Source: a virus
Lineage: Duplodnaviria > Caudoviricetes
Virus record (IMG/VR): IMGVR_UViG_3300047388_000410
Location: 1-63,231 of that record
DNA length: 63,231 nt
Strand: one strand, 5' to 3'
Shown here: piece after piece, positions 701 to 62,669 of the stretch
Layout: every line of letters begins with the position of its first letter
Numbering within the stretch: the stretch's first letter is position 1
Notes under the pieces: generated by a model
The model's database searches: none
Seen by the model: the letters and a program-made list of their open reading frames with translations, nothing else
What the model was told of the DNA's origin: nothing
Translations under genes and position numbers: made by a program

Positions 701-1312
701 TCATCGCTTCTCCCTCTTCATAATAATCTCCTCTGGCGTCATCCCACCACCGTCCACCGCATTCACCATCTGCTCATGCCATGCTAGCGATTCAGGCGAA
801 CCGTTACGCAATTCAATGTTAAGTGGCGTCGGGCCAGATATATACGCCAACATCGCTTCTACGACTTCAACCTTCAGCTTCAGCCTATTTGCCAATTCCA
901 TTGCCGTCGGCTCTCTCCCCAACTCATTCGCCACTTTCACCATCATCTTTCTCAGCTTCGGCAATGTATGCATTAACCACGTCGGCAATCGCGTGGGATT
1001 CTCCAAGCGTTGGACATACGATGATAACGCACTTCTGATGCGCCACGTTGCATGCGCCGAGAATGCAGCACCCTTTTTCGGGTCGAAGGTAATACATGCT
1101 TCCACCAATCCTAGCCGCGCGACTTGCTCTAAATCCTCGCGCTCCGTGCCAATATCGTCTTGATAATATGTGGACGCTAACGACACTGCTAGTGGCTCAA
1201 ACGCCCGACACAACCCTTCAACGGCCGCGTCGTGCTCTGATCCATTTAGCAATTTAATATATTTCGCAATATGCTCCGGCTCAACGGCCGGCTTTCGTCG
1301 TTTCGTTCCCAT
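701..1312 (-). CDS. Sigma-70 family RNA polymerase sigma factor (regions 2 and 3 only)
   Basis: Region 2: DLEQVARLGLVEA..FDPKKGAAFSAHATWRIR. Region 3: ELGREPTAMELANRL. The protein stops before region 4. Confidence 0.9.
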   Translation of the reverse strand: MGTKRRKPAVEPEHIAKYIKLLNGSEHDAAVEGLCRAFEPLAVSLASTYYQDDIGTEREDLEQVARLGLVEACITFDPKKGAAFSAHATWRIRSALSSYVQRLENPTRLPTWLMHTLPKLRKMMVKVANELGREPTAMELANRLKLKVEVVEAMLAYISGPTPLNIELRNGSPESLAWHEQMVNAVDGGGMTPEEIIMKREKR

Positions 1313-1990: not shown

Positions 1991-3264
1991 TATTCGGGTA
2001 CTTCATCAAAACACCGACAACTCGGCGCATAATGCAGCATTCGCGGTCGGCCCATTGTCATATTCAGCATTCCCGCCGCGCCAAGTGTATTCAACGCCTT
2101 CACCGCATCCGTATGCGATAGATGCAACTGCCGATACAACTCGCGCTCCGTCATACACCCCTTACGCTGCAAATACGCCTCCACGCGCTGCTCAACGATC
2201 TTTTCGCTTTGCTGGCTCACGGTTTTCGCTCCTGACCAACCCCGCGTTATCCACATCATGGACTCTTGGCAATAAGTAACAACTTGAAGCGTCGCGTTCA
2301 TTTGGTCTTCGGTGATGCGGATATATGGCGCCGGGTCAACTTCGGTCATACAATATATCATACCCAACTTCTTGACATAGGTATCGAGTCGTGTTAACGG
2401 CTTCGTCTCCATATCGCTCAAATTCTGCTGCCTCAACGTATGCGCACTATACCACGCCGCGTGCATCGCTTCGGCTTCGGGAGACATGCCCACACGTACG
2501 CTCGCTCGTTGCGCCGCTACGCGCTGCCATTCGTCACGAATATCAGCAATGCGCGTCGCTAATGCAAGTACCGCAGCTTGATCTGGTGTGCCCATAATCG
2601 GTTTAGCGATCCCTGTTGCCTCGCCGCCGAAAATCACGAATCGGTTTAACATGCCACCAGAGAAGAACGTCTCTGATAGGTCCAGCCGTACATGCTCTGG
2701 CGTACCATTCAAAATGAGATTAAGGTAATAGTCTTCCGCCGTAATCGAATCCTGAGCCTTCTTAACAATCGCCGCAACTGGTAAAAGCCCAAACGCTTTA
2801 TTAAGAATCGGCTCCAACCGATTTCCACTTCGCGCTGCTGTAGCAAACAAGTCCTTGATTTCGTCATATCGTATCAACACATTCTTCTTCTGCGCCAAAG
2901 TGCGAATCAACCCCTCGGCCGATGATACCGATGTCATTTGATGATGCGCTCGGTCACGAAGCGAATTTGCAATATATTCTTCAACCAAATCACTCGCTGT
3001 TGACTTCTTCGTCCCTGTACCGCCGCAACAGAATATAAAAAAGTTCGTATACGGCCCGGTGCCTTCATCAAATCGCGCTCTATCTCCCAATTCTGCCGCC
3101 ACAAGCGCAAGCATATTAGCGAAGTGAAATGACCGTGGACTCTCGCCTAGATGGTCAACCAAGCGGCGCCACGCCTCAAACACTCCTCGCCACGCTGCCT
3201 CTGGAAATGGCGGTAACTCGCCGCTTAATAATAGCGGCTGGTGGGAATCATCCTCTTCGATCAC
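1990..3264 (-). CDS. DUF3987/YfjI-like replicative P-loop ATPase (putative helicase) with C-terminal winged helix
   Basis: Walker A GGTGTKKST, SSAEGL, Walker B IRYDE, GMLNRF arginine-finger motif. No N-terminal primase domain. Confidence 0.8.
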   Translation of the reverse strand: MIEEDDSHQPLLLSGELPPFPEAAWRGVFEAWRRLVDHLGESPRSFHFANMLALVAAELGDRARFDEGTGPYTNFFIFCCGGTGTKKSTASDLVEEYIANSLRDRAHHQMTSVSSAEGLIRTLAQKKNVLIRYDEIKDLFATAARSGNRLEPILNKAFGLLPVAAIVKKAQDSITAEDYYLNLILNGTPEHVRLDLSETFFSGGMLNRFVIFGGEATGIAKPIMGTPDQAAVLALATRIADIRDEWQRVAAQRASVRVGMSPEAEAMHAAWYSAHTLRQQNLSDMETKPLTRLDTYVKKLGMIYCMTEVDPAPYIRITEDQMNATLQVVTYCQESMMWITRGWSGAKTVSQQSEKIVEQRVEAYLQRKGCMTERELYRQLHLSHTDAVKALNTLGAAGMLNMTMGRPRMLHYAPSCRCFDEVPE

Positions 3265-3413
3265 TTTCGGCTTTCTTCGTCGTATTGTCTGATGGCTTCG
3301 ATTACTAACGGAATAACGCGACGGACGATTTCAACGGCTTCAGAAATTCGCCGTTCGCGATTACAACCTTGACAATTCCAACAAGGCTCATGTCCGTTAC
3401 ACCACTTACACAT
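3261..3413 (-). CDS. Small Cys-rich (zinc-binding) protein
   Basis: Hand-translated MCKWCNGHEPCWNCQGC...; overlaps both neighbours. Confidence 0.5.
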   Translation of the reverse strand: MCKWCNGHEPCWNCQGCNRERRISEAVEIVRRVIPLVIEAIRQYDEESRK

Positions 3414-3582
3414 AATCCTTTTTACACTCATCACATAACCAACCTTCGACTTCGCTGGTTGATATAAACGTCAGCTTGCCGCGTCGATAACACGAATCAC
3501 AGCCCTTTGACCCCGTATGCTTCGGCCACGTCGCCTTCTTCCCCGCCGTTGTAACAGAAAATCGCTTCTGTTGGTATTTCAA
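3406..3582 (-). CDS. Small zinc-ribbon protein
   Basis: Hand-translated; TTG start overlapping the GT stop; CDSC...LCDEC. Confidence 0.5.
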   Translation of the reverse strand: MKYQQKRFSVTTAGKKATWPKHTGSKGCDSCYRRGKLTFISTSEVEGWLCDECKKDYV

Positions 3583-4730
3583 ACGAAACCTCCTGCTTCG
3601 CGCTTAATAAATCCTGTAAAATTTGTATCGTACCATCCATCGCCCCATAAAGTCATTAACCTCTCAAAATATTCTTGATACTGATACTTTACCACATCCA
3701 AGCTAAACCTGTTCCTCGCATACTCCCTCAAATGCATCGGACCCCAAAGTTTATCAACATTTCGCACAGCCCACATAGCCTCGCCAAGTGTACGAACGCG
3801 GTAGCCAACTTGACCATCAGGTACGGTACTGCTAAAAACACCCCAATCGCTAGTGATGACAGGAGTGCCACAGAAAAGACTCTCGACATGAACGCCCTCC
3901 CAAGGTCCGATATATGTTGTAGGCACAAATAGTGCTCTCGCCTTCCCCATAAATTCTGCGCGTTCTTTGACACCTAAAACACCAACATATTCGATATGAT
4001 CGCCTTCAATAGTTAATTCAGCAGCCTTGATATATCCCGGTCGATAGTCGATAACACCCTGACCTGCAATCTTCAGCTTCTTCCCGAGCCGCCGTGTTGT
4101 CTCAACAGCCAACTCAATTCCTTTACGCCGCACGAGCCGTCCCATATACGCGAAGTAATCGGACTTTTGATTACGTGTCGTGAGTGGAAAATCAGTCGGA
4201 TCAAAATAATTTGGAATAACTGCATCATACGATGAACCATCATTCTGATTTAACTTGCCGTACAAATAATGCATCCACGCATATGACTCAAAAACACGAT
4301 ATGCGCTAAAAACGCCTTCATACCCTATGCCGAATTCAACGGCCATATGCTGCGGAAATGCATCAGCAATCGGCTTTTGACATACGCCGCCGATTAAACA
4401 AATAAAATCACGCGGTTGAATGCGTTTTTTAATTTCAGCAATAGCGTTATTATTTGCATGTTGCCAATACGATAGTTTGCTGTCCCATTGAATCGCAAAG
4501 AAATCTTTTGTATAATCGTTATCTCCCCACCATTTTTTATGATGCGCTTCGTCCATGATAACGATATGCTCAGTACATGCAGCTTCGTTTTGATAGCCGG
4601 CGTAGAGATAAACTTCGTGGCCGAGTGAGTGCATCATGTTACAAAAATTTCTAACCTTAGTGCCATATGCGCACATACAATAGGTACGTGTAGTTTGAAC
4701 ATGCGGCAACGATATACAATGCAACCGCAT
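3579..4730 (-). CDS. GT-B fold glycosyltransferase (GT4-like)
   Basis: LGHEVYLY, VIPNYFD, YMGRLVRRKG, and the ESLFCGTPVITSDWG donor-binding motif. Confidence 0.9.
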   Translation of the reverse strand: MRLHCISLPHVQTTRTYCMCAYGTKVRNFCNMMHSLGHEVYLYAGYQNEAACTEHIVIMDEAHHKKWWGDNDYTKDFFAIQWDSKLSYWQHANNNAIAEIKKRIQPRDFICLIGGVCQKPIADAFPQHMAVEFGIGYEGVFSAYRVFESYAWMHYLYGKLNQNDGSSYDAVIPNYFDPTDFPLTTRNQKSDYFAYMGRLVRRKGIELAVETTRRLGKKLKIAGQGVIDYRPGYIKAAELTIEGDHIEYVGVLGVKERAEFMGKARALFVPTTYIGPWEGVHVESLFCGTPVITSDWGVFSSTVPDGQVGYRVRTLGEAMWAVRNVDKLWGPMHLREYARNRFSLDVVKYQYQEYFERLMTLWGDGWYDTNFTGFIKREAGGFV

Positions 4731-4757
4731 TTTACTTGAACCTTCGCTTTGCCGGCG

Positions 4758-5741
4758 TCATGGGAGCTTTATCTCCTTCCGCGCCTGCGCCCGTACCGCG
4801 GCCAAGTCTGCGCGAAGTTGAATCGCTTGCCTCCCCTCCTTACAGATCACCAAGCCGCCTATATCTTCGCACCAATGCGTTCGGAGACTCCCGCACTCGT
4901 CCTCCAGCCGGGCAATCTCCGCTTCCAACGGCGCCCGCACTGCGGCGGTGTAGGAGGCGGCGAGGGCGGCGGTGTCGTCAAAGGCCGCATCGCACTGAAC
5001 GCGAATGTGCGCTGGTGTTAACGGACTGACCGAAATGAATGCCAAGATGTCCCGCAGCCCCGCCGCGGTCGCCTGCGCGGCGTCGCGCTCGGCTTCTACG
5101 TCACGCATCGGGTGCTTCACGCAGACGTGAATATGCGCGGAAAGGGCCTCGTCATTCGCGTCTGGCGTGCCCGGCGGATACATCTCGCCGCAGAAGGCAC
5201 ACCTAAGCTCTTGCGTCTCGCGCACCATCTTGCGGACCCACTCCCGAGCCTCGTCCCGCTCCTCGGTGAGCCGGGCGTTGTCGGCCTGGAGTCGGTCAAT
5301 CGCTTCCTCAACATTCAGGCCAACGCTCGCGTTCGGGTCCAATTCCCAGACGCGCGCAGCCTGCTCCAAAGCAGCCATCGCCTCGGCTTTCCAAGCAATA
5401 CCGCGCTCCCGCTGCCGGATGTTCTCGGCCTCCATCTTTGCCCAGCTTGAGCGCGTCCAACGTGTCGCAGCATCGGCTGCCGCTTGCAGGTCACGTAGCT
5501 CGGCCTGCGCGGTGGCGAGTTGGGCCTCTACGTCGGCCCGGTTGTGCCGTGCCTCTTCTCGGAAGTCGGCCGCGAGGTCTTCGCGTAGTTGATTCTGGTC
5601 CTGCACTCTCGCTTTCCACTTGTCTCGCTCGGCCTCCAGCGGCGCGCGGACGGCGCGGAATGCCGCGACTGCCAGCCGCACGAATTCTTCGCTGGCACTA
5701 TTCGGGGCGACCAGCGCCCGCGCCCGCTCCTCATCTGTCAT
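4758..5741 (-). CDS. Hypothetical coiled-coil protein with Zn motif (Ead/Ea22-like accessory)
   Basis: Ala/Glu/Arg-rich heptads; CAFCG..HIHVC..HP; internal AVRAPLEAE repeat; visibly GC-rich. Confidence 0.6.
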   Translation of the reverse strand: MTDEERARALVAPNSASEEFVRLAVAAFRAVRAPLEAERDKWKARVQDQNQLREDLAADFREEARHNRADVEAQLATAQAELRDLQAAADAATRWTRSSWAKMEAENIRQRERGIAWKAEAMAALEQAARVWELDPNASVGLNVEEAIDRLQADNARLTEERDEAREWVRKMVRETQELRCAFCGEMYPPGTPDANDEALSAHIHVCVKHPMRDVEAERDAAQATAAGLRDILAFISVSPLTPAHIRVQCDAAFDDTAALAASYTAAVRAPLEAEIARLEDECGSLRTHWCEDIGGLVICKEGRQAIQLRADLAAVRAQARKEIKLP

Positions 5742-6037
5742 TTTAGCTCCTCGATAAACCCTGGCGTCGCCCGGCACAATACACACGCCGACTTCGCCTT
5801 CTCATGTGTATTCGGGCACTTTACAAATCCTTCTCGCGGACATCGGCCGCATACGAGCCCCGACGATATAAAGCCACCGCAGGTTTCGCACATGGTGCCA
5901 GCGGGCCAGGAGGGGCCGCCATAGGTTGATGCTACAATTTCGCCTTCAGCATCAGCTAACGCGATAGCGTAGTCATCATCAACCAGTTCGCCGTCTGGCC
6001 AATCGTTTTGAATATTGATAAGCTTCGACTCGTTCAT
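5738..6037 (-). CDS. Hypothetical protein with Cys-rich C-terminus
   Basis: CETCGG, CGRC and CVLC motifs; coupled to neighbours. Confidence 0.5.
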   Translation of the reverse strand: MNESKLINIQNDWPDGELVDDDYAIALADAEGEIVASTYGGPSWPAGTMCETCGGFISSGLVCGRCPREGFVKCPNTHEKAKSACVLCRATPGFIEELK

Positions 6038-6567
6038 GCCGTCCCCCGACACTTCGTATGATCTTCGCCAGGAATACGAACACGACCGCAGGAGAAGCAG
6101 AGAGGGTCGTAGCGAGGCACTTTTGGCTCGGCCGGCTTCTGTGTCGTCGTCATTGATCGCATCAATTCCGCTGCCTTCCCCTTCACCGGCCGATCGTCAA
6201 CTAGATTACCCGTAGCCTTCGCATCCAACAGAATCGCCACACACGCCATAGCATGTGCCTCGTGAGGATATCCAGATTCGGGGTCAGCGTCTTCGCCATC
6301 CAACGCTGCCATTAAATGCCGCATCGCCGCGCTATAATAAATCGTCCATTTAACTTTCTTGCTACGCCAGTTGAAAGCGCCGTATTTTTTTGCGCCAAGC
6401 TCCATGATCTTTGAGAGATATGCGATGCTAGCCGGCGGAATCGTCCAGATATTCGGCTTATCGGTGCCGAGACGGTCTTTGGGATTGGTTAAACAACAAC
6501 AATCACCGGGTTCATATTCTGGCTTACTGCAATGAGAGCAAATATAACCTTTATGACTATCAGCCAT
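6034..6567 (-). CDS. dATP/dGTP diphosphohydrolase domain protein (DUF5664)
   Basis: TNPKD..G..K, GAKKYGAFNWR, YYSAAMRHL..GEDADPESGYPHEAHA, LVDDRP. Confidence 0.85.
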   Translation of the reverse strand: MADSHKGYICSHCSKPEYEPGDCCCLTNPKDRLGTDKPNIWTIPPASIAYLSKIMELGAKKYGAFNWRSKKVKWTIYYSAAMRHLMAALDGEDADPESGYPHEAHAMACVAILLDAKATGNLVDDRPVKGKAAELMRSMTTTQKPAEPKVPRYDPLCFSCGRVRIPGEDHTKCRGTA

Positions 6568-6908
6568 TACACCCTCTCACACGCCAACAGCGTCTCAAGA
6601 CTCAAATACACTCTCGACGCTCCATTCCGTGCAATAAACCGCTGCTGTTCACGATCGGCGCCGCTCGATTCACCGGGCAGGCGCAAAAACGCATCACACG
6701 TATCGAGCCACTCAAAGTCATACGCAAGCCAAGTCTCGTACTCATGCGGATGCATCAGATGCCAGAACATGGTAAGATGCGGGATAAATGGGATGAAGCC
6801 GGCGTCGAGCAATACATTACCTGCATCAATAGCACGCTTTGTATTTGTTACCGGATCGCCTGTACTGTAGGGACCCGCGACGTAGATTCTAATCTTGCGC
6901 TTTGTCAT
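6567..6908 (-). CDS. Nucleoside 2-deoxyribosyltransferase-like protein (DUF4406/DUF1937-like)
   Basis: IYVAGPY, PFIPHL, WLDTCDA..RLPGESSGADRE. Confidence 0.75.
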   Translation of the reverse strand: MTKRKIRIYVAGPYSTGDPVTNTKRAIDAGNVLLDAGFIPFIPHLTMFWHLMHPHEYETWLAYDFEWLDTCDAFLRLPGESSGADREQQRFIARNGASRVYLSLETLLACERV

Positions 6909-7312
6909 TGCGGATTCTCTCCTTTCAACACTTTCAAATGTTCATAGCCTTTTCTAGCGCCTCTGGTATACCAACTTATTGTACTCGTAACTACGCCAAA
7001 CCGTTTGGCAATATCTCCATTTGATAAACCTTTAGCCCGTAATTTGGGAATGCTATTTAATTGTTCTTCGGTTAGCTTACGATTCTTGCGATCAAAAGCG
7101 CAATGACAAGAACGGCATAGACCGATATAATCGTTCATATCGTAATATCGTCTAGAAACATTAGCCCATTCAAGCCAGCCGTCTTTTCGCCCGCAGTGCT
7201 CACAAATCTTCGGCCGGCCTTTTAGGCGCTGAATGCGAGTATGCGCTCCCTTATATGAAACAGCATTACCTTTCCAACTGAAGTTTTGAGCACCACGCTG
7301 ATTAGGATTCAT
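6905..7312 (-). CDS. HNH-type homing endonuclease with C-terminal HTH
   Basis: WKG..VSY...H, CEHCG, LEWANVS, LCRSCH..FD, IAKRFGV. Confidence 0.8.
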   Translation of the reverse strand: MNPNQRGAQNFSWKGNAVSYKGAHTRIQRLKGRPKICEHCGRKDGWLEWANVSRRYYDMNDYIGLCRSCHCAFDRKNRKLTEEQLNSIPKLRAKGLSNGDIAKRFGVVTSTISWYTRGARKGYEHLKVLKGENPQ

Positions 7313-9123: not shown

Positions 9124-9984
9124 TTATACCTCCGCGCAGTCCCAAGCTGCTTCTAATACTTTCGCTTTCGTCGGCACGCGCTTAAATTCGTACCTAGCTT
9201 TCCAAGTTTCGCCAAGCGAATATGTCACTGGTACGCGCAATGCTCCTGCGGCATACTGTCGCACCGTGCTTCCTAACGTTTGCTCTAGGAAATCCATAAC
9301 AACCCAAGCATCATCAGGATGAACACTTACCGTCAGGGAATCGTGACCGTGTATATGAATCCTCGGTGTTGGTCGCTCAGGATGCGGATTCAGCTTTCGC
9401 AAATTGATCGCATTCCTAAGCGGAAGATACCCACATTGGTTAATCAAGTCAACGGTTTCGCGCACGGGTTGATACGAATAGCCCGTACCATACAAATGCT
9501 CATCAAGCCGTTGCCAATCGCAGCGCCATATACCGCCGAAAGTTGAGCCCAGCGCCCTATACCGCATGATCTGCCGTCGCGTATCGGGAAAGTAACCATC
9601 GGGGATGGCTGGTAGCTTGGCAGCGAGTCGGGCTAAGCGTCTGCCGCATTCCTCAGGCGTCACCACATATCCTTGCTTTAACAACGAATCGGCCATGGTT
9701 TGCGGTCCCATCCCACGCATGTAGCCATGCATAGTGGTTTTACCCATAAACCGTTCTGGTTCATCATCAGTATCTTTTACATCTGCTTCTGATTTAGCAA
9801 ATGCGATACTAGCTGAATATCTATGAATATCAAATTCTGACGGATGCGCTGTAGCAATTCTAACACATTCTTTTGCAACGTCCGTACCTACAAATTCAGG
9901 AGTAGCGGCAGCTAACATAAGCTCTACTCGTGCTTCCACCTGCGATAAATCTGCTGATAACAGCAGCATTTTACGCAGCGGCAT
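9124..9984 (-). CDS. Family A DNA polymerase, C-terminal palm/fingers half of a split gene
   Basis: Motif [14 protein letters not shown], motif [18 protein letters not shown], motif C IHGHDSL, C-terminal GETW. Confidence 0.85.
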
Positions 9985-10393
9985 TTTTTTCTTTCCGTTT
10001 GCGCCATCGAATATGCGCACATTCTCGACAACGCCTTGCTAAATAACCACGTGGAGAATGCCATTGAGTGTTTTCAAGTGTATATTCGTGTCCATGCCGA
10101 CAATGCGTTATACGCGCTCTAATAAATCGGCCTTTCTGCCAAGCGTCTTTCAAATTTTCACCAGGCGTACCAGCAAATAAATGATATGGATTGATACACG
10201 GCGGATTATCGCAAGTATGACAAACAAATAAATCTGTTTTACCGTTTACAGTTTCAAAAACTAAACGATGCATTAAAACGATACTACGGCCTTTTTCGTG
10301 TATATAGCCGTATCCAAACGGTGTTCGCGGCCCAGGCCATTCCCAGCATTCATTTTGCCGTTTACGTTTTAATGCATTCGGATTAATAGACAC
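9971..10393 (-). CDS. HNH homing endonuclease
   Basis: [34 protein letters not shown]; [11 protein letters not shown]. Confidence 0.9.
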
Positions 10394-10988
10394 AAGGCAC
10401 CAATCTCCACTTCGCCCTCTCCATATACCTTCGATACGGTATACTATTCCTCAACCACTTCTCTTCGGCGTCCATACGGCACACAATAGCCCAATACGTG
10501 ACGACAATGGCTGCAGTGTTATACGCCGTCGTGTACGATATAAAGTACCCAGCAAGACAAATTATATGCCCCAAATACATCGGATGCCGCACGAAGCGAT
10601 ACACGCCGCCAGTTACTACGCCTCGATTCGCCGCGACTATACCCATACTGCGCCGTAGACTCAATAGCGCCGCAAGCGCAATCGTGAGCCCAACCATCTG
10701 CAATATCGTACCTATTACATTCCCGTCATTCGTCGGCCTCACCAGCAACGGCGCAAACGACCCCGCAATCCCCACAACCCAATCCACGACACGCGGCGAG
10801 GTAGCCTGAGACGGACGGCGGCATACGAACATTGCGGCTAATATCGTCTCCTGCACCACCATCGGCGCCACGATGTACCATTGCGGCGAGCCGCCGCGAA
10901 TGATGGCGAAATGGGCGTCAGCGAAATAGAGATATGCTATTGCGATAATGAGGTTTTCGGTGAGTTGGCGGGCGCGGGAAGCGGTCAT
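10383..10988 (-). CDS. ICMT/PEMT-family membrane methyltransferase
   Basis: Several TM helices; [18 protein letters not shown]; R..AEE..L...Y..Y.....WRLVP. Confidence 0.85.
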
Positions 10989-11446
10989 GCTGCTTGTTCT
11001 TTTACCGTTTGTGCTGCCCTTAAATAAGTAGTAGCGCGTTCCACTCTATCGACATCATCACCAAGTTGCCCTATGCCAGCATTGCATTTACGGCATAACA
11101 CACCACGAACAACTCCTGTTTCATGACAATGATCTACACTAAGAAGATGCGTACTACCACAAATAGCGCAACCTCCGTTTTGTGCAATAAGTATCTTCCA
11201 TAACATTTTCTCGTTTAATCCGTACTTACGGCGTAAAACAGCATCACGCGCAGACTCGTGATAACGGAGTTTTTCGCGTGCATTTAATTTTACACGATGT
11301 TTAATACCATATTGGTCGTTATAAATTTTAACTTGTTCAGGATGCGCCAATCGCCATAGTCTAGATCGTTCTTTAATTCGTTCACGATATAGTGCATAAT
11401 ATCGTCGGCGTCTAGCTTTAGCGTCTTCAGAACGCTTATACGGCAT
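10985..11446 (-). CDS. Endonuclease VII-domain homing endonuclease
   Basis: KYGL..Q.GGCAIC..LSVDHCHETGVVRGVLCRKCNAGIG..D. Confidence 0.9.
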   Translation of the reverse strand: MPYKRSEDAKARRRRYYALYRERIKERSRLWRLAHPEQVKIYNDQYGIKHRVKLNAREKLRYHESARDAVLRRKYGLNEKMLWKILIAQNGGCAICGSTHLLSVDHCHETGVVRGVLCRKCNAGIGQLGDDVDRVERATTYLRAAQTVKEQAA

Positions 11447-13421
11447 CTTCATCTCCAGTATCCGGCAAATAATATTTACGTAATTTTCTGTCAACCTGCT
11501 GGAGATTTGCACCTTCGCCTTTCGGCGTCTTAAACGCTTTCAATCTACCAAGTGCAGTTTCTTGTTTGAACATGCAGACTTGGCGACCGTTAGTCAGCCG
11601 TTCAGCTTTAACAAATTGCGCCTCAGTATTCAATCTTCGATGACGAAGCACGAGTTTGCCAACTGTTTGTAGTAGCTCATTACCAGGGAAATTCTCCATC
11701 AGTCTCTTGACTGTGACTACATCCGTACTCACAACTTTCTGCTTCTTCTGATTCTTCCTATACTGCAACGGCAAGCGTAGCTTCTCGTATAAAAACGTCT
11801 TGAGTTTCGCCGGGCTTGGCACTTTGCCGATAATCTCGCCCTTTTTGCTGACGCCCACGATAGCCATTTCCGCCGCGCTGTTTAACGCCGCACTAATCTC
11901 TTTCGCTTCGGCTGTGACTTTTTCGTAATGGGCAGCCCGTCCTTGTTCATCACCACGAATTCCAACGCGGGACAATTCGACCAAACCCGTGTCAATAGGG
12001 GCTTCCATTTCAAGATAATATTCGTAGCGTCCTGCGCTTCTGAGCGCGGATACTCGCACATCCAACAATTCTCTTTGCACACAGTTATCGACACAGTTAT
12101 ATGCCCACAACGACTCTTTATTATGGCTCCATCTGCTAATTTCTTCTGGCGATTTCGCTTCGTGCTTCCAAAAGGGTTGACGGGTATCGAGCGATGCTTG
12201 AAACGCCAAGTCATTCCACTCTGACCATGGCCGCTGTTCGCGGTGCATTTTCATCAGGTCCCATGCGAGATGATCCAATGGCATCTGCTCAGTCGCGCAC
12301 CACCAGGCGTCGAAGGTGAAGTTTTGGCCGCCAAAATCGACGTTTGGATCAGCGTGAAACGCGGCTATCTCATTCTTGACTCTACGCCATGCGATTTCGT
12401 CTTGCCAGTATTCAATTGCCGTCGGGATACAGAGCGCGAGTTTCGCGTCCCATGAGTAGCCGATGCAGCCGAGATAGGCTTCTTCGGAGACTTTGACGCG
12501 GCGGGGTTTTGACAACTGCGGAAGGTATCCAGTGCAAGCACATCTAGCTTTACCGCGTAAGCCTTTGCACGACGACGGCATAATTTCATTATCTTTTCGT
12601 AAGACTTCCAAGTCATGCCATCGGATATTGTGATTGCACGTCCTACATTTTCCATTTGCGGCTGTGCTTTCTTTTTGCCTCGTCTCATATTCCACCTTAT
12701 ACGGCGTCTCAACATCCAAGCTGCACGCTAGCCGTTCAGTAAATATTTCGCCGTCTTTCCGCTTCTCGGCTTCGGCTCTTGCCCATCGCATCCATTCGAT
12801 TGCTTCAGCCGCGCTTGGCGCGATGATCTTTGTGCGCTCGGGCAAGCGCAACTCTCGAAACTGTCCATCCGCCGCTATGCGCTGCCAATCCATCTGCAAC
12901 GCCCATTCGAGGCTTATGTCGCCATAAAATGTTGAATTAGGGTGAACGCTCGATATCACCTTGATTTGCCGCCCGCGCCGATCCTGATAGCTGAGAATGC
13001 TGCCTCGCCATTCCTTCGTACCAGGGCGATCATACTTGCCATCCTTATTATGAAAACTGACGCGACCATTACCCGTAAGCGCATAAAGCGCATACGAGTA
13101 GTTGGTCATTCCGTTTCCAAGCGGGACTATGACATATGGGTCTTCAAGCTGCGCTAGCCGCTCATGCAACCGATCCATCGCAGCGCGCATTTCGGCTTCA
13201 GGAATTGAATTGATATTCTGCGGCTGACCCAAATCCCAACACGAAGTTATGTAGAAGTCGCTGCGGTTTAGTCCCGCCGCTTTCCACCACGGTTGCAACT
13301 TATCGCTGTACGCTGGCCCGACCATTGGGCGCCCGTAGGTTTGCTCCCAATGTCCCCAAGCGTCGATAACCAGCACGAAGCGTGCTGATCTTGAGCCTTC
13401 GTCTTTATTTAACGACAACAT
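11436..13421 (-). CDS. Family A DNA polymerase, N-terminal half: UDG-like domain, 3'-5' exonuclease and thumb
   Basis: UDG-like: G..E..GRPMVG, VIVPLGN, WRGSIL, VHP. Exonuclease: ExoI DVET, ExoII QNFTFD, ExoIII YNCVD. Thumb: SPAKLKTFLYEKL. Ends with GRL..ANLQQ..LRKYYLPD. Confidence 0.85.
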   Translation of the reverse strand: MLSLNKDEGSRSARFVLVIDAWGHWEQTYGRPMVGPAYSDKLQPWWKAAGLNRSDFYITSCWDLGQPQNINSIPEAEMRAAMDRLHERLAQLEDPYVIVPLGNGMTNYSYALYALTGNGRVSFHNKDGKYDRPGTKEWRGSILSYQDRRGRQIKVISSVHPNSTFYGDISLEWALQMDWQRIAADGQFRELRLPERTKIIAPSAAEAIEWMRWARAEAEKRKDGEIFTERLACSLDVETPYKVEYETRQKESTAANGKCRTCNHNIRWHDLEVLRKDNEIMPSSCKGLRGKARCACTGYLPQLSKPRRVKVSEEAYLGCIGYSWDAKLALCIPTAIEYWQDEIAWRRVKNEIAAFHADPNVDFGGQNFTFDAWWCATEQMPLDHLAWDLMKMHREQRPWSEWNDLAFQASLDTRQPFWKHEAKSPEEISRWSHNKESLWAYNCVDNCVQRELLDVRVSALRSAGRYEYYLEMEAPIDTGLVELSRVGIRGDEQGRAAHYEKVTAEAKEISAALNSAAEMAIVGVSKKGEIIGKVPSPAKLKTFLYEKLRLPLQYRKNQKKQKVVSTDVVTVKRLMENFPGNELLQTVGKLVLRHRRLNTEAQFVKAERLTNGRQVCMFKQETALGRLKAFKTPKGEGANLQQVDRKLRKYYLPDTGDEDAV

Positions 13422-13524: not shown

Positions 13525-13989
13525 TCATTTTGAGCCAAGTAACTTTATCAGCCGCTCTACATGGCTGTCCTGTATGCCAAAATTCCAGTCTGTTCTTACG
13601 AAGCGAGGCGTAAGTAACGGATGATCGCCCGCGTCGGCATCATCATCCACAATCGCAAACGACTCAATATCGCACAACGTGCCGTCACCTAATCTATGTT
13701 TATTTAACCACGCCATAATCTCACTCGCCCGATGCCCATCATCTAACCTCGGCGTAAAATGATTTATAGTCAACCCGCCGACCGTGCGCAATAGCGTAAC
13801 GAAGTCAGGCACGAGGCGCCACGTAGACGAGAGCAGAATTTCACAACCAGTAACTTCAATTACACGATGCACACGCTTAACGGCTTCAGGGTCTAACTCG
13901 GCTAATCCTAACCAACCCTTCGCCTTTTGCGTTGTGAACCATTGCGCGCTATTAAGTACACCATCAATGTCCAACGCCAGAATTTTCAT
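13525..13989 (-). CDS. HAD-superfamily protein (HAD_SAK_2-like)
   Basis: LDIDGVLN, LSSTWR, R..EI..WL, AIVDDD. Confidence 0.85.
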   Translation of the reverse strand: MKILALDIDGVLNSAQWFTTQKAKGWLGLAELDPEAVKRVHRVIEVTGCEILLSSTWRLVPDFVTLLRTVGGLTINHFTPRLDDGHRASEIMAWLNKHRLGDGTLCDIESFAIVDDDADAGDHPLLTPRFVRTDWNFGIQDSHVERLIKLLGSK

Positions 13990-14934: not shown

Positions 14935-15058
14935 CACTCTTAGCCTCGTGCATTAATTTTTCGATTACTTCTCCACACGGCCGACAAAACAACCACACTT
15001 TGCCATCCGCCGTAGTTTCCACCGGCTGCTCGCCGCATTTGGCGCAGGTAGGTGGCAT
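14927..15058 (-). CDS. Micro zinc-ribbon protein
   Basis: Hand-translated MPPTCAKCGEQ...FCRPC; TGATG coupling. Confidence 0.55.
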   Translation of the reverse strand: MPPTCAKCGEQPVETTADGKVWLFCRPCGEVIEKLMHEAKSDG

Positions 15059-15420
15059 CAGCTATGTACCCTGTATTTACGGCCAACCTTAGCCGGTTTT
15101 GAACGCCAAGCAGCAACAGCAACCCGTATCTGTTCTTTTCTATGCTGTGACATAAGACTATAAAGTGTTAACATCCAACCAATCGCACGTCTACCGCCTA
15201 CCCAGCAACGCCATTGTGCTCGATAATGCGAATGCCATTCTTTACTAAAATGTCGTCTCGGCATTATGGACGAAGCGCCCATAAGCTGAGCAACCGCTGT
15301 TACTGTATCTAAATCGCTCATAGATAATTCAATACGCGGTTGTCCTGTACTTTTTGCGTGAAAATGCGCTTCTCCATCAAGTAAACCGGCTAACCAATAT
15401 ATGTGCCGAGTTTCTACCAT
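15058..15420 (-). CDS. LAGLIDADG homing endonuclease (single motif)
   Basis: WLAGLLDGEA..F; IELSMSD; W..GRRA...L..LM..RK.QI. Confidence 0.85.
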   Translation of the reverse strand: MVETRHIYWLAGLLDGEAHFHAKSTGQPRIELSMSDLDTVTAVAQLMGASSIMPRRHFSKEWHSHYRAQWRCWVGGRRAIGWMLTLYSLMSQHRKEQIRVAVAAWRSKPAKVGRKYRVHS

Positions 15421-22171: not shown

Positions 22172-22379
22172 GATTACATGGTCCTAGATGCACACGCGGC
22201 GTCCAGCGCTCGATGAAACTCGTTACGCGCCACTTGCACCGCTGCCACCGCGTCGGCGGCTTCGTCGGAAACATTTCAAACCGCTTATTCGATTTACAAG
22301 CCTCTTCGTACAACGCTTTCGCTAAATAATCATTGCGCAAAAAATCCGGCGGGCCATTCCAGCTAATTGCCATATACAA
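22155..22379 (-). CDS. Hypothetical protein
   Basis: GAGGAG RBS; coupled ORF. Confidence 0.45.
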   Translation of the reverse strand: MYMAISWNGPPDFLRNDYLAKALYEEACKSNKRFEMFPTKPPTRWQRCKWRVTSFIERWTPRVHLGPCNHDDCY

Positions 22380-22749
22380 TCCGCTCCTCTATCACCACGC
22401 GCTCTCCGGTACTATACACCACGCTCTTAAACCCCGCAAGCTGCAACATGCTATAGCATACGCTGCATGGGCGGCTCATAGCGAGTAGCCCTGTTTTGGT
22501 TAGGCGCACCACTATCATCGTCGCCCCTCGCGTCTCGTCACTTGTCATATGCAACAGCGCGTCTAACTCCGCGTGTATGCGTTGCCAGGCTGTTTGCGCT
22601 TTTGGGTGCGTTCGCATTTGATTGTAGCCTTTACTAAGTAGCTTATTCCCCTTTACAATCAAAGCTCCGACTCGCATATGATGCGTTGAACGGCTAGCCG
22701 TTCGTATCGCCAGATTTAGAAAGCGTATTCTTCTGGCTCCAAGCGTCAA
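22363..22749 (-). CDS. Cytidine/dCMP deaminase-family protein
   Basis: VGALIV, GYN, HAE..AL, SRPCSVC zinc motif; probable TTG start at 22749. Confidence 0.85.
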   Translation of the reverse strand: MTLGARRIRFLNLAIRTASRSTHHMRVGALIVKGNKLLSKGYNQMRTHPKAQTAWQRIHAELDALLHMTSDETRGATMIVVRLTKTGLLAMSRPCSVCYSMLQLAGFKSVVYSTGERVVIEERIVYGN

Positions 22750-23245
22750 GATACTCGGCTGCACAGCGCAATACGGCTGTACTATCTCTGAACATGCCAA
22801 GTCCAACATTGCATTGTCCACAAAGCAATCCTCGATGTTTGTTAGTGAAGTGGTCATGGTCAATAGACCAATCTTTTTTATTCCCCGGATTTGTAGTACC
22901 ACATACCGCACATTTGTATCCTTGTGCATGTATAATAGAATCAAACTCTGTTACTGTTATACCGCGCTTTTTGCATCTGCGCCTTTTATCGTACAAAAAA
23001 AGTACCTGCGGATTTTCACGTCTCATCTTTTCACGCCACAGTCGACCTTTGAGAGCAAACTTTTCTTTGAATTTCTCATAGTGCCGCTTCATTACTACTT
23101 TACGTTTTACAGGGTTTGGCGGAGTAGAATTTTGACATGTTTTGCAGCGTGATTGTGGACCGTTTGCCCTGTCTCGTCGTTTATGGAAATCGGTATGCGG
23201 CTTAACTATGCCACATTTAGGGCATTTTTTTGTCAGGAGTGTCAC
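22694..23245 (-). CDS. Endonuclease VII-domain homing endonuclease
   Basis: N-terminal CPKC..CKTC; CAVCG..IDHDH...HRGLLCGQCNVGLG.F.D. Confidence 0.9.
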   Translation of the reverse strand: MTLLTKKCPKCGIVKPHTDFHKRRDRANGPQSRCKTCQNSTPPNPVKRKVVMKRHYEKFKEKFALKGRLWREKMRRENPQVLFLYDKRRRCKKRGITVTEFDSIIHAQGYKCAVCGTTNPGNKKDWSIDHDHFTNKHRGLLCGQCNVGLGMFRDSTAVLRCAAEYLDAWSQKNTLSKSGDTNG

Positions 23246-42926: not shown

Positions 42927-43268
42927 ATGGCTGACATTACGAAAGACGACGTAATATACGTCATCGAACCATATCCCAAGGGTTCACTGCTTACCGATAA
43001 GCCTCCGCGGTATAGTAATCTCGTAAGCGTATCGTTCGGAGACAGCGCGCTAACGGTTCCGGCAACGGGTATTCCGCTCAGCGGCATCGGGCTTGGCTTT
43101 CCAGAAGATCAGGTAGAGTATGTGATTGTAATTGACTCGACTGATGCGGGAAGCGTGTATTTTACCTACGATTCGACTAATAATAGTTTGAAGTCGGCAG
43201 ATACGAATTATGATAGCGGCTCTGCGCCTCCTGCAACGACACTAGTTGTTCTTGCTCGCGGGTATTAA
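42927..43268 (+). CDS. Virion structural protein, paralog of 37939-38265
   Basis: Shared motifs with 37939; AGGAG RBS. Confidence 0.7.
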   Translation: MADITKDDVIYVIEPYPKGSLLTDKPPRYSNLVSVSFGDSALTVPATGIPLSGIGLGFPEDQVEYVIVIDSTDAGSVYFTYDSTNNSLKSADTNYDSGSAPPATTLVVLARGY

Positions 43269-44341
43269 TGAAGAAAATTCTTCTAACGTTTGCAATTTCG
43301 CTGCTTTTGTTTGGCAAAGCATTTGCGCAAACAACCACGACCACTACGCTTCCGACGTGCGCGAATGGCGGTATCAAGTGTGGAAAACAATGCCCAACTG
43401 GCGGTGCGAGTTGCAACCCTAGTGGCGGGCAGCTTTATACCGGCATGTGCGTTGGCAATTCGCTGCAGGGCGAGTGCCAATATGTCGCATGCAGCGGTGG
43501 CGCGAAATGCGTAAGCACTCCATTCGGCAAGCACGGTTGCCTTGGTGATAGTGAATGCAAGCCAGGAGAAGCGTGTATTAGTGATAGCGGCATTGAAGCC
43601 TGCGGTACGGGTTTTAGCGTATGTATGCAGTTATGCCCGGTTTCGACAACCACGACCACTACGACTACTACAACGACAATTAGTAGCACGACGACGACTT
43701 CGGCTCCGTCAACTACGACCACGACTGTACCGATTGGTTCGCTGGGTAATTACGGCGTTGTGGCTTCGTCTACGATTACGAACACCGGCTTTACGGTTGT
43801 TCAGTGCAAAATGGCACTTGACCCTGGATCATCTATCACAGGCTTTCCGCCTGGCACAGATGGCGGTGAAGATATTAGCAATCCGGCATCGCTTCAGGCA
43901 CAGACTGACGCGACGACACTTTATAACTACCTTGCCGGGCTGTCATCTACCGCTACCGTATCTGGTGATATCGGCGGCACGACCAAAGGACCAGGCGTCT
44001 ATACCGCTTCATCTACGCTTTCAGTAACGACGGCTGATTTGACACTCGATGGTGGTGGCGATCCAAATGCGCTCTTCGTTTTCCAAATCGGCTCAACGTT
44101 TACAGTTGCAAATGGTAAGCAGATTGTACTGATTAACGGCGCGCTGGCAAAGAACGTGTATTTCCAAGTCGGCAGTAGTGCAACATATGGCACAACTTCT
44201 GTTATTCACGGAACCACGGTCGCACTAGCATCTGATACAGTAAACACCGGCGCCACGGTTATCGGGCGACTTATCGCACGAACCGGCGCAGTAACGCTCG
44301 ATGACAACGCAGTAACATCACCAACAGGCACTTGCCCATAA
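43268..44341 (+). CDS. Secreted ice-binding protein (DUF3494) with 14-Cys N-domain and poly-Thr linker
   Basis: Signal peptide; STITNTG.T, PGSSITGFPPG, QAQ.D...Y..L, PGVY, LTLDGGGDPNALFVFQIGS, LINGA.AKNVYFQVGSSAT, GRL.ARTGAVTLD.N. Confidence 0.88.
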   Translation: MKKILLTFAISLLLFGKAFAQTTTTTTLPTCANGGIKCGKQCPTGGASCNPSGGQLYTGMCVGNSLQGECQYVACSGGAKCVSTPFGKHGCLGDSECKPGEACISDSGIEACGTGFSVCMQLCPVSTTTTTTTTTTTISSTTTTSAPSTTTTTVPIGSLGNYGVVASSTITNTGFTVVQCKMALDPGSSITGFPPGTDGGEDISNPASLQAQTDATTLYNYLAGLSSTATVSGDIGGTTKGPGVYTASSTLSVTTADLTLDGGGDPNALFVFQIGSTFTVANGKQIVLINGALAKNVYFQVGSSATYGTTSVIHGTTVALASDTVNTGATVIGRLIARTGAVTLDDNAVTSPTGTCP

Positions 44342-46578: not shown

Positions 46579-48360
46579 ATGGGCGTACAGTTAAACATAT
46601 TCGACGGTACATTAGAGCCCGATAAGCATCCGGGGCCGGCAGGGGCCACCGGGGCCACTGGTCCGGTTGGCCCGGGCAGTGGAGCAACCGGCGCGACGGG
46701 TGCAACCGGGTCAAGCGGGACTGCGGGCAGCAATGGTGCAACGGGGGCAACAGGAGCCACGGGGCCATCGGGCGCTGGGTCAACTGGTGCGACTGGTTCT
46801 TCGGGGCCGACGGGCGCTACTGGCCCGACCGGCCCACAAGGTAATACAGGCGCAACAATTACCCCATCATGTGCTACAGCACCAGAATTATTGTGCCTTG
46901 GCGGACGCGTTGGTACAGCAAATAACCCAACAATCAGTAGTGATATTGATGGTATTATTACAGGTTCTGGTACAGCGAGTAAAAATCTTCTTATTCATTC
47001 AAATCCATCGCTTGACGGGTACACGGAGTTCGACGGCCAGCTTCGCATCAAGGCCGGTACGCCGTTTGGTGTTGGAAGTCAGGTTATCGGCGAAAGTGCG
47101 GGCGGCGCGTTACAGATTCTCGGGCTATCGCCGTCAACCGCAACGTCGGTCGTTGGTGGTGGTCTGCGGGCGATTGCGCTCGACCCCGATTCCATCGCGA
47201 CGCCGATTCTCGTTCAAGACTCAACGTATGCATCGTTGATTATCCCTGGACAGATTCATCTTGCGTCTCCCGGTGGCAATGCGTTCATATTTGCCATCAT
47301 CGCTGGCGCGACCATCATGATCACTGACAGCACTAATAAGCTAAAAGTCGGGTTGTTCAGCGACAACAACACCATCGTTGCTGACGGCACTACACAGACG
47401 CTCGACGAGCAGGTGTCATTTGAATCCGAGCCGGTGTTGCAGTCGAATAACGGCGGCGTACTGACGATCAACGATTCAAAAGTCGTATGGGATAACTTCT
47501 CGCTCGCGACCGATGGAACGCCGGGCGGCAGCGTCACCGTTATTGATCATGCAGTAGCCATATCGGCGCCGACCATCGGCGATTTCTGTGTCATCACGAA
47601 TCGCCGTGGGTTGTGGTTCAAAGACTATTTCGACTCGGGCGGCATCGTTGTTCGAGGGACCGCTACCAATCAGATCGCGGTAGACGTAGAGGATTTACCT
47701 CCTCATCCAGTGAACCCTGGCGTGTTGATGCTTTCGCTGCGTTCCGTTGGTGCGGGCGTCCAGATGCGCCACGTCGGCGCCGCGGTATTCGGGGCCAATG
47801 CCGCTCCTACTGGTGCATATATCCTAGAGGTCATCGGCAATGCTCACATTAGCGGTAAACTAACTGTAGACGGTGCCATCGACCCGACTGATATCACCTA
47901 CTCTAGCCAACTCATTTCTACTATCGTTACGGGCACTGCACCAATGGTAGTGGCTTCCACTACCGGAGTAACCAATCTTAACGCCGATATGGTAGATGGA
48001 TTACATGCAACGGCATTTGCTTCTGCTGCGACGTTAATTCCATTATCCGCTCAGTCCAACGATATCGTTGACACGACCGTCACCGGAACGGCTGGCTTCT
48101 ATCGTGTTCACGTCTACTTAGTCGATTCCACTGCTGCCTTGGCCGCTGGTACTGTGTCCTGCAACATCAAGTTCAACGACGGATCAGCCGCTCAGACTAT
48201 AACCGTTGGCCCCATCGCACTGGCAACCCTTGGCTCCATGACACAGGCTACAATCTTCGTAAACCTAGCTTCGGGCAATCTTACCTACGGCACTGTCCAT
48301 ACCGGATCGTTTTTAGGATCGCAATATGGGTTGTTTATCACTTGGGAGAAGGTGGCATAA
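46579..48360 (+). CDS. Collagen-repeat tail fibre protein
   Basis: G-X-T repeats; [25 protein letters not shown] fibre motif. Confidence 0.8.
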
Positions 48361-62409: not shown

Positions 62410-62669
62410 CTCAACGGGCCGTAATAGCAGCGAGGATTATCACAACGCTCGCGTCCGCACTCACGACACTTGACATGACATGGGCAAGTGCAAATATCGT
62501 CGTAAAACTTTGTTCGTACCTGTGATTGGCACTTTTCATGTTCACCAATATAACACTGCGGAAACCGATAATGCGCCTCGACAAACGATATCGTCACATT
62601 CTCTTTCGCTTCTTCGCGTTGAATCCAGCCGCGTAAGAGCCACGAGAGGAATTGTTTAACGCGGTCCAT
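62406..62669 (-). CDS. Cys-rich hypothetical protein
   Basis: C..GEH.KC...CTCPCH..CRECG. Confidence 0.55.
   Translation of the reverse strand: MDRVKQFLSWLLRGWIQREEAKENVTISFVEAHYRFPQCYIGEHEKCQSQVRTKFYDDICTCPCHVKCRECGRERCDNPRCYYGPLS

Follow-up and report, generated by a model that had tools for sequence, protein, structure and literature searches.

A candidate two-gene family A DNA polymerase with histidine at position 762 and arginine at position 766 in a lineage of uncultured phages

The viral record IMGVR_UViG_3300047388_000410 of IMG/VR (63,231 bp, positions 1-63,231; Duplodnaviria, Caudoviricetes), below called the window, contains on its minus strand, at 9124-9984, a gene that encodes part of a family A DNA polymerase (PolA), namely the fingers and most of the palm. 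This gene, here called the C-part, retains the catalytic residues of the family and has histidine and arginine in the positions of Phe762 and Tyr766 of the Klenow enzyme. It is likely that the C-part is the catalytic subunit of a proofreading replicase that is encoded by two genes, belongs to the type in which a uracil-DNA glycosylase (UDG)-like domain accompanies PolA (UDG-PolA), and has a fixed, rebuilt base-pair pocket. As a part of the same interpretation, the odd active-site residues are probably lineage traits maintained by purifying selection rather than signs of decay. A replicase is the simplest reading because this is the sole polymerase found in the record, the replication module around it is conserved, and its proofreading motifs are invariant.

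Active site of the C-part

Residues are numbered along the open reading frame (ORF) of 298 amino acids at 9124-10020, which begins with an upstream GTG. The likely start is the ATG of M13 at 9984, giving a protein of 286 amino acids. The coordinates of the motif strings on the minus strand were checked by script. The ORF starts five residues ahead of the motif A strand. The main features are as follows.

9124-9984, minus strand: C-part gene, carrying motifs A, B, 6 and C and encoding the fingers and the larger share of the palm (family A DNA polymerase)
9928-9957, minus strand: motif A; D24 corresponds to D705 (9949-9951) and E29 to E710 (9934-9936)
9712-9753, minus strand: motif B, O helix; R90 corresponds to R754, K94 to K758, H98 to F762 (9727-9729) and R102 to Y766 (9715-9717)
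9520-9540, minus strand: FGGIWRC; G163 corresponds to R821 and I164 to R822; R166 is a clade-specific arginine
9448-9480, minus strand: motif 6; S182 corresponds to N845, V186 to Q849 (9463-9465) and D191 to D854; R187 is a clade-specific arginine
9337-9351, minus strand: motif C, HGHDS; H226 corresponds to H881, D227 to D882 and S228 to E883 (9337-9339)

Just upstream of motif 6, G178 takes the position of R841. The Klenow residues involved in strand displacement, S769, F771 and R841, correspond to G105, Q107 and G178 (residues 105-107 at approximately 9700-9708) and are all non-canonical; S769 and R841 were placed by the deep profile alignment described below, and F771 was counted on by eye from the alignment.

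On its own, the C-part matches the Pfam family DNA_pol_A with E = 7.9e-6 and 25.5 bits, below the gathering cut-off of 34.3 bits, and the six-frame search yielded a match of 18 bits. The Pfam model covers both halves of the split gene. The register of the motifs was established by hhalign at two depths. The shallow comparison, with a family alignment of 30 sequences against E. coli Pol I, had probability 95.5. The deep comparison, with a family alignment of 191 rows against four canonical PolAs (E. coli, Gordonia phage GTE2, Microbacterium phage Alakazam and Bacillus phage JL), had probability 99.9 and E = 2.7e-35. Both align H98 with F762 and R102 with Y766, and the register of motifs A, B and C is the same. 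In motif 6 the shallow alignment is off by one residue (P185 with P847), and the deep one aligns V186 with Q849. The latter is accepted because it comes from the deeper alignment and because glutamine occupies this column in 138 of 149 distant relatives.

The AlphaFold2 model of the C-part has a mean predicted local distance difference test score (pLDDT) of 89.5 and a predicted template modelling score of 0.83. The model helix 89-101 runs up to R102, which matches the end of the O helix at Y766. Against PDB, Foldseek ranks Bst, Taq and E. coli Pol I highest, along with Pol theta, with E about 1e-9 over some 266 columns.

The preliminary description of this region, made from the sequence alone, had placed His at F762, Arg at Y766 and Val at Q849 by eye, and the first two assignments hold in both profile alignments and the third in the deep one; the model helix agrees with the position of Arg. 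The region was rightly assigned to family A, but it is only the fingers and palm half of the enzyme, and the split had been overlooked. The reported change of FGRRR to FGGIW is correct in that FGGIWRC is present; however, FGRRR is the wording of Taq and Bst, and E. coli has D-G-R-R-L at 819-823.

Several features that define family A PolAs are present in the C-part: Asp and Glu of motif A, Arg and Lys of motif B, His-Asp of motif C, and homology at the level of fold and profile. Others are absent, namely Phe, Tyr or Leu at 762 (H98), Tyr at 766 (R102), and a score above the Pfam gathering threshold.

The C-part has no close match among the catalogued phages. A tblastn search of the C-part against 50,697 phage records (INPHARED) gave no matches at E<=1e-5, and phmmer against PDB sequences gave none at E<=10. 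A word-index search for longer, unsplit homologues produced 5157 candidates, none of which scored. Unsplit relatives were found later, by a pattern scan and by an exhaustive profile search that covered 1.84 billion cluster representatives. The latter defines a family of 627 clusters at E<=1e-3, of which 128 have E<=1e-30. Conservation was counted in the best 149 representatives outside the close clade (distant) and in 55 close clusters, all aligned to the hidden Markov model (HMM) of the family.

Position 762 (Phe): distant, His in 135 of the 142 rows with a residue, Leu 3, Tyr 3, Phe 1; close, His 53, Tyr 2
Position 766 (Tyr): distant, Tyr 75, Arg 70, Gly 2, gap 2 (149 rows); close, Arg in 55 of 55
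Position 849 (Gln): distant, Gln in 138 of 149; close, Val 41, Gln 14
Position 841 (Arg): distant, Arg 124, Lys 16; close, Gly 33, Ala 21, Ser 1
Position 821 (Arg): distant, Arg in 102 of 149; close, Gly 38, Ala 15, Arg 2
Position 883 (Glu): distant, Ser 73, Ala 35, Glu 33; close, Ser 50, Ala 5

Both sets keep the catalytic residues almost without exception, in agreement with their retention as first described. The Asp of motif A (D705) is present in 50 of the 55 close clusters (the rest are four gaps and one Pro), and the steric-gate Glu (E710) in 51 of 55 close and 95 of 149 distant ones, all other rows being gaps. In motif B, R754 is found in 54 of 55 close clusters, and K758 in all 55 and in 140 of the 141 filled distant rows. 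In motif C, D882 is found in 148 of 149 distant and 54 of 55 close clusters, and H881 is near-invariant in close and distant clusters.

Two arginines of the close clade are missing in the other relatives, R166 (53/55) and R187 (52/55). In these alignments the substitutions are nested: His762 marks the whole family and Arg766 one deep half of it, and the loss of R821 and R841, the usual Val849, and R166 and R187 are confined to the clade of the window. The possibility named earlier, that the substitutions might be unique to this genome and hence decay, does not agree with the presence of Arg766 in all close clusters and in 70 of 149 distant ones. Conservation of Arg and Val, proposed there as a check, is seen for Arg in the whole close clade and for Val in 41 of its 55 clusters, with Gln in most of the distant relatives.

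A FastTree phylogeny of 151 rows was built after removal of the four trait columns. On this tree the state at 766 (Arg or Tyr) changes twice, compared to a mean of 48.7 changes for shuffled labels, and none of 500 shuffles was that low. The clade of the window has 17 rows, all of them C-parts, and 100% local support. Three columns follow the state at 766: column 101 (Gln with Arg, Asn with Tyr), column 144 (Phe, and Gln or His) and column 182, equivalent to N845 (Ser, and Ala). They look like a co-adapted neighbourhood of Arg766.

A link to known phages comes from three distant, unsplit members of the family (L004-L006), which share 30-33% identity with the C-part. They match, at about 25% identity, PolAs of Mel-JY34, Kuura, Desulfofustis LS06-2018-MD01 and Manatee Spring metagenomic phages, and, at a similar identity of about 25%, those of SPO1-like Bacillus, Gordonia and Microbacterium phages. 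Among the SPO1-like phages, JL, Shanette and CP-51 are linked to distant family members by tblastn at 23-25% identity. The motifs of eight phage PolAs were read by eye, the hmmalign alignment of reference PolAs to the family HMM being fragmentary. Histidine at 762 together with Tyr766 was seen in Microcystis phage Mel-JY34, Caulobacter phage Kuura, Desulfofustis LS06 and the metagenomic phage MW202489, so that His762 is present in isolated phages as well; MW202554 has Tyr762, and JL, GTE2 and Alakazam have Phe762. Motif C reads HDS in six of the eight and HDA in two. Thus Ser at E883, although correctly noted before and confirmed by hhalign, is ordinary among phage PolAs. None of the eight has Arg at 766.

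The four PolAs with His762 share this residue and the HDS of motif C with the window, and have P-Q at 848-849. However, they retain Tyr766 and have not lost R841, R821 or Q849. Among INPHARED records they match the distant members best (about 25%), and they are not close to the window. The polymerase of Kuura is also in pieces. Arg766 was observed in metagenomic sequences only, and three Arg-type members from separate branches hit phage records at no more than 27% identity.

Published surveys describe a narrower range at this site. The text of Czernecki et al. (2023; PMC10201439) recognizes 19 PolA clusters and calls B3, which is position 762, the most variable of the conserved positions, occupied by F, Y or L. 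In passages of Nasko et al. (2018; PMC6302109) only Phe, Tyr and Leu are counted there. Keown et al. (2022; PMC9069017) do not mention histidine, His762 or position 766. Among the matches listed in our literature search, no polymerase study of His762 or Arg766 was found. Small unclassified groups in surveys such as PMC10201439 may already hold His or Arg variants.

The partner gene and the break point

The remainder of the polymerase is encoded upstream of the C-part by a separate gene, here called the N-part, and three ORFs lie between them.

11436-13421, minus strand: N-part gene, 661 amino acids; family-4 UDG-like domain, 3'-5' exonuclease, thumb and first palm strands
13350-13373, minus strand: UDG motif, IDAWG, N-part residues 17-24
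12702-12722, minus strand: Exo I, DVE, D236 and E238
12306-12329, minus strand: Exo II, QNFTFD, N367, F370 and D371
12087-12101, minus strand: Exo III, YNCVD, Y441 and D445
11541-11558, minus strand: Arg of the TGR-type motif (TALGRL) of the N-part
10985-11446, minus strand: Endonuclease VII-type HNH gene; Pfam Endonuclease_7 E = 5.7e-22; GC content at third codon positions (GC3) 0.234
10383-10988, minus strand: PEMT/ICMT-like membrane methyltransferase gene; Pfam PEMT E = 2.3e-10, ICMT E = 3.5e-8; GC3 0.624
9971-10393, minus strand: HNH endonuclease gene (HNH_3); Pfam E = 1.1e-5, PHROG 826 E = 6.9e-31; GC3 0.277

The N-part ends just before motif A, on ...NLQQVDRKLRKYYLPDTGDEDAV, which corresponds to the E. 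coli stretch preceding VIVSADYSQIE. Its search against the same 50,697 phage records gave two weak matches only, with 22-23% identity, neither of them N4. The UDG-like domain is recognized by Pfam (UDG, E = 3.3e-10, 40.6 bits, cut-off 24.3) and by similarity to PDB entry 1ui0 (E = 2.3e-6). The motif of active UDGs is of the GE[AG]PG type. Relatives of the window have GEAPG or GEAYG at this site and the window has IDAWG, so that the domain of this phage is probably catalytically dead and only structural.

The three exonuclease motifs do not vary among the 26 N-parts aligned. The preliminary description had called them intact, which is correct, but they lie outside 9124-9984, in the N-part. Between Exo I and Exo II there is a cysteine-rich insertion resembling a Zn ribbon (CxxC...H...C.C; approximately residues 255-330, 12330-12700, minus strand). 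The close clade keeps it, and relatives with 34-40% identity have a shorter form or none.

The same division of the gene recurs in the relatives. The N-part has 27 clusters at identity of at least 47%, mostly of 640-690 amino acids, and the N-parts, including those with 34-43% identity, all end alike, right after the motif NLQN..DR.LR. The C-part has 55 homologous clusters (265-353 amino acids, 55-83% identity) on contigs of up to 66 kb. Every long contig that was examined carries an intact copy of each half. Some C-part homologues (P0032, P0041, P0046, P0052-P0055) have before motif A an N-terminal extension of about 50 amino acids with a zinc-finger-like motif CPTCR...H..H; the C-part of the window does not have it.

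The junction itself was read in two independent close relatives; the metagenome scan gave six loci, four of them shorter than 2 kb. In the first relative, L003 (identical with L013), whose C-part is 70% identical to that of the window, the halves are approximately 150 nucleotides apart, with no inserted gene, and the C-part has a GTG start spaced from a GAGG box. In the second, L016 (55% identical; 2442-4881), a gene for a UvrD-like helicase (503 amino acids) and two small ORFs separate the halves. Since L003 is split and has no HNH genes, the break is older than these genes. Together with the common end of the N-parts, these loci show that the division of the gene is ancient and falls at one point throughout the close relatives, and that different inserts are tolerated there. 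When the split was treated as a label on the tree, 23 changes were counted, although some short representatives may be fragments of genes.

In the window the three inserted ORFs tightly overlap one another. The ATG of the Endonuclease VII-type gene overlaps the final codons of the N-part, and the stop of the HNH_3 gene overlaps the start region of the C-part. The polymerase halves have GC3 values of 0.54 and 0.43, and the values of the three ORFs (0.23, 0.62 and 0.28) deviate from these, which fits an origin by insertion. The PEMT/ICMT-like gene, encoding a multi-pass membrane protein and wedged between two AT-rich HNH genes, is an odd cargo for a homing-endonuclease cassette.

The two chains were also modelled together (N-part residues 200-661 with C-part residues 13-298). 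The complex scores were 0.81, 0.79 and 0.81, and the best of three controls scored 0.00. Of the solved complexes, 58 of 80 reach the mark used for these scores, as do 2 of 110 mismatched pairs; the counts apply only roughly here, as custom alignments were used. At least 85% of the contacts agree between runs, and partner pLDDT is at least 88. The strand that ends the N-part (648-658) is paired in the predicted complex with residues 16-20, 232 and 271-274 of the C-part. This prediction supports an assembly in which the palm sheet is completed across both chains. The high scores may, however, stem from likeness to PolAs solved as single chains.

Other arrangements of the junction were considered. 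A group I intron was rejected, as there are no Rfam matches over the whole window and L003 has no insert. An intein or trans-splicing was rejected as well, the end of the N-part and the start of the C-part having, by eye, no extensions of intein length. An intein-like insertion (start C-L-S-P-G, end H-N followed by S, by eye) was seen in the exonuclease domain of an unsplit relative of 1086 amino acids (L004, 3535-6795).

A split PolA as such has already been published. The OM43 phages MEP401 and MEP402 are described in the text of PMC10580990 as split, like the window, within the PolA domain. An exonuclease/polymerase split, reported "for the first time" in the text of PMC10201439, occurs in the T7-like phage S-SBP1. 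LUZ24-like phages have an exonuclease/polymerase split too, and "DNA polymerase part I/II" is named for them in passages of PMC3890496. As far as these texts go, all of them resemble the window in having a two-gene family A replicase with intervening ORFs, but belong to another PolA lineage. In the family of the window the break is directly before motif A and is common to relatives down to approximately 35% identity, and the cargo varies: nothing, the HNH-PEMT-HNH set, or a UvrD helicase gene.

Free-standing homing endonucleases are known to have produced phage genes in pieces, as in nrd and gene 43 of the T4 family. As there, HNH genes of the window occupy the junction of an essential replication gene, the halves of which would still cooperate. 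Unlike those cases, the split predates the endonucleases, as seen in L003, and the junction is an insertion-tolerant site, not a break made by HNH genes.

Genome context

The left arm of the record is transcribed from the minus strand and carries genes of replication and nucleotide metabolism; terminase, portal, lysozyme and tail-fibre genes are on the right arm. CheckV estimates the completeness of the record at 56%. Sister contigs have lengths of 62.8-66.2 kb, which suggests that the record is close to whole. No PolB and no Pol III alpha were found in the record, and the C-part is its sole PolA match. The replication module around the polymerase includes a PD-(D/E)XK nuclease, a Sak4-like ATPase and a primase-helicase, and the same module flanks the unsplit relatives. 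Genes of nucleotide metabolism on the arm of the polymerase are listed below.

3579-4730: GT1-family glycosyltransferase
6034-6567, minus strand: protein with the N-terminal domain of dATP/dGTP diphosphohydrolase (dGTP_diPhyd_N)
6567-6908, minus strand: nucleoside 2-deoxyribosyltransferase-like DUF7768 protein
13525-13989: HAD phosphatase
22363-22944: dCMP deaminase

The pair of diphosphohydrolase and DUF7768/DUF4406 genes (6034-6908, minus strand) is kept in L003 at 9271-10178. It hints at editing of the nucleotide pool. Between the glycosyltransferase and the nucleotide-metabolism genes there is an ORF of 342 amino acids with no Pfam or PHROG match (4758-5786, minus strand).

Beyond the two HNH genes at the polymerase junction, the genome is well stocked with genes of the homing-endonuclease type. 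At least three more HNH/LAGLIDADG-like endonuclease genes lie on the minus strand, at 6905-7312, 15058-15420 and 62669-63151, one of them fused to AP2. A phage-encoded factor of the sigma-70 family with regions 2 and 3 is encoded at 701-1312 (minus strand). In a protein of the structural module (43268-44341, plus strand) an Ice_binding-like domain is strongly recognized (PF11999, E = 3.6e-49), and tail-fibre proteins with collagen repeats are encoded at 46579-48360 and 54359-55705. No tRNA genes were found in the window. A scan of genome contigs for prophage copies, intended for host assignment, matched 30 pattern stretches, none of which was confirmed.

Candidate function and alternative explanations

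The roles of the changed residues are taken from two reviews (PMC10520511, PMC9324360), as far as their relevant passages go. According to those of PMC10520511, F762 controls sugar discrimination; Y766 stacks at the primer-template end, and fidelity is lost in Y766A/S; R841 together with S769 and F771 handles the template strand and strand displacement; and hydrogen bonds of R668 and Q849 serve as minor-groove checks of the primer-template.

If the C-part is the catalytic subunit of a replicase, the partner subunit encoded at 11436-13421 would contribute the degenerate UDG-like domain, the proofreading exonuclease and the thumb, as well as the palm strand that precedes motif A. The chains would join non-covalently, with a palm sheet built from both. 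The chemistry would be the ordinary two-metal reaction, as D705 and D882 are retained, and E710 would still act as the steric gate. The imidazole of His762 would replace the phenylalanine ring against the incoming sugar. Where the O helix ends, the guanidinium of Arg766 may take the place of the tyrosine ring as a platform for stacking or as a gate, and may form a salt bridge to E710. R166 and R187 may take over from R821 and R841 and re-create contacts with the template strand. The net function would be accurate, proofread replication of the phage genome by means of a differently built base-pair pocket. This is consistent with the earlier view that the enzyme is able to catalyse and that its nascent base-pair pocket has been reshaped, which fits both the kept catalytic residues and the conserved odd ones.

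The candidate enzyme can be compared with known UDG-PolAs. In the literature this term was found in one paper only, PMC10201439, whose text assigns to the group the N4-like cluster #17 and SPO1, SP-10 and SP-15, and speculates about selectivity for 5-hydroxymethyluracil (5-hmU). The order of UDG-like domain, 3'-5' exonuclease and PolA described there is common to these enzymes and the window, and the UDG catalytic motif of the N4-like enzymes is degenerate, as in the window phage. However, only F, Y or L is reported at B3 for the 19 clusters of that text, whereas the window has His762, Arg766 and a split gene. In particular, cluster #17 has Phe at B3, and there is no close sequence relationship between the window and the N4 polymerase.

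A second comparison is provided by the Klenow mutants Y766A/S, F762Y/A, Q849A, R841A, N845A and E883A, covered in the same passages of PMC10520511, where the same positions are altered and the phenotypes reveal the normal role of each residue. These are single laboratory changes to Ala, Ser or Tyr in an otherwise canonical pocket, whereas the window combines natural Arg, His, Val, Ser and Gly, with co-varying neighbours.

Several observations weigh against this interpretation. By itself the C-part is under the Pfam cut-off (25.5 versus 34.3 bits). According to passages of PMC10520511, activity or fidelity of Klenow drops in the Y766A/S, R841, N845, Q849 and E883 mutants, and by analogy it is conceivable that the phage enzyme is weak or error-prone. 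The contacts suggested for Arg766 with Glu and Phe are conjecture. The deep branch that divides the Arg and Tyr types has 74% local support only, and the co-varying columns are confounded with ancestry because the residue at 766 changed only about twice. Finally, given the CheckV estimate, a second polymerase could be situated beyond the record.

One alternative is that the pocket is adapted to a non-canonical nucleotide pool and accepts modified deoxynucleotide triphosphates (dNTPs) or a modified template, as in DpoZ (2-aminoadenine) or as proposed for SPO1-type enzymes and 5-hmU. This seems rather unlikely. Most phage base modifications sit in the major groove. The changed residues touch the sugar and the minor groove, and the major groove of Bst Pol I is free of protein according to passages of PMC10520511. 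Neither a thymidylate-synthase-like hydroxymethylase nor an adenylosuccinate synthetase of the PurZ type was found by Pfam in the 72 scanned ORFs of the window (E<=0.01/0.001); DpoZ, the PolA of Z-genomes, co-occurs with PurZ. His762 and Arg766 are also present in L004 and L005, whose flanks of 5-6 kb contain only replication genes and ribonucleotide reductase, and the UDG motif of the window phage is degenerate. On the other hand, the dCMP deaminase, diphosphohydrolase, DUF7768, glycosyltransferase and HAD phosphatase genes are on the same arm as the polymerase, the diphosphohydrolase and DUF4406 pair recurs beside the polymerase in L003, and the text of PMC10201439 names SPO1, SP-10 and SP-15 as UDG-PolA phages with modified uracil. 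Use of modified nucleotides, raised in the preliminary description, is neither supported nor excluded, and with these neighbouring genes a link to modified DNA is worth testing.

Slightly less probable still is an enzyme of intrinsically low fidelity or high promiscuity, that is, a mutator, a polymerase tolerant of dideoxynucleotide or ribonucleotide triphosphates (ddNTPs, rNTPs), or one proficient in translesion synthesis, part of whose errors are fixed by the exonuclease. Such an enzyme would be expected from the loss of the Tyr766 stacking checkpoint and of the minor-groove and template contacts of Q849 and R841. The properties of Klenow Y766A/S and the role of F762 speak for it, and 762 is the classic site of ddNTP discrimination according to passages of PMC10201439 and PMC6302109. 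The window clade has also lost R841, R821 and, in 41 of 55 clusters, Q849, one of the two residues whose hydrogen bonds check the primer-template. However, Arg766 is fixed through deep divergence, with two changes on the tree of 151 rows, and the co-varying neighbours point to a compensated and selected, not a relaxed, architecture. The new arginines resemble substitutes for the lost ones, the steric-gate Glu is present in every filled row, and no other replicase was found for this genome of about 63 kb. The mutator, exclusively lesion-bypass and non-replicative roles entertained in the preliminary description are not supported; the invariant proofreading motifs, the lack of another detectable polymerase in the record and the conserved replication module argue against them.

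A decaying remnant, broken by insertion of homing endonucleases and with drifting active-site residues, is very improbable: three foreign-looking ORFs with deviating GC3 do interrupt the reading frame and the C-part is under the Pfam threshold, but the comparative data already contradict decay, since the break point is identical in relatives with no insert or with a helicase gene, the 55 C-part and 27 close N-part clusters have their own starts and intact halves in every long contig examined, the catalytic residues are near-invariant, and the complex model scores high against controls of zero.

Returning to the replicase with a rebuilt pocket, a more specific proposal can be made, although only tentatively. 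The enzymes with His762 and Arg766 might form an undescribed functional subfamily, in which the guanidinium, paired with the steric-gate Glu, serves as the gate for the template base in place of a tyrosine ring, giving distinct nucleotide selection. If so, sugar discrimination could be altered, for example, or modified or bulky minor-groove substituents tolerated; the clade of the window would be the extreme form, in which R841, R821 and Q849 have also been given up; and polymerases of useful substrate range might be obtained from this natural group.

Tyr766, together with Phe, Tyr or Leu at 762, is a textbook determinant of fidelity and sugar discrimination in family A. Here a large and deep replicase lineage of uncultured phages, with Arg766 in about half of the best 149 representatives, would break both rules under selection. 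Surveys that filter on a "conserved 762 position" may overlook this group. The split before motif A, with its cargo-accepting junction, would add a further functional polymerase in pieces, and the lineage as a whole would be a natural experiment on alternative ways of building the PolA pocket.

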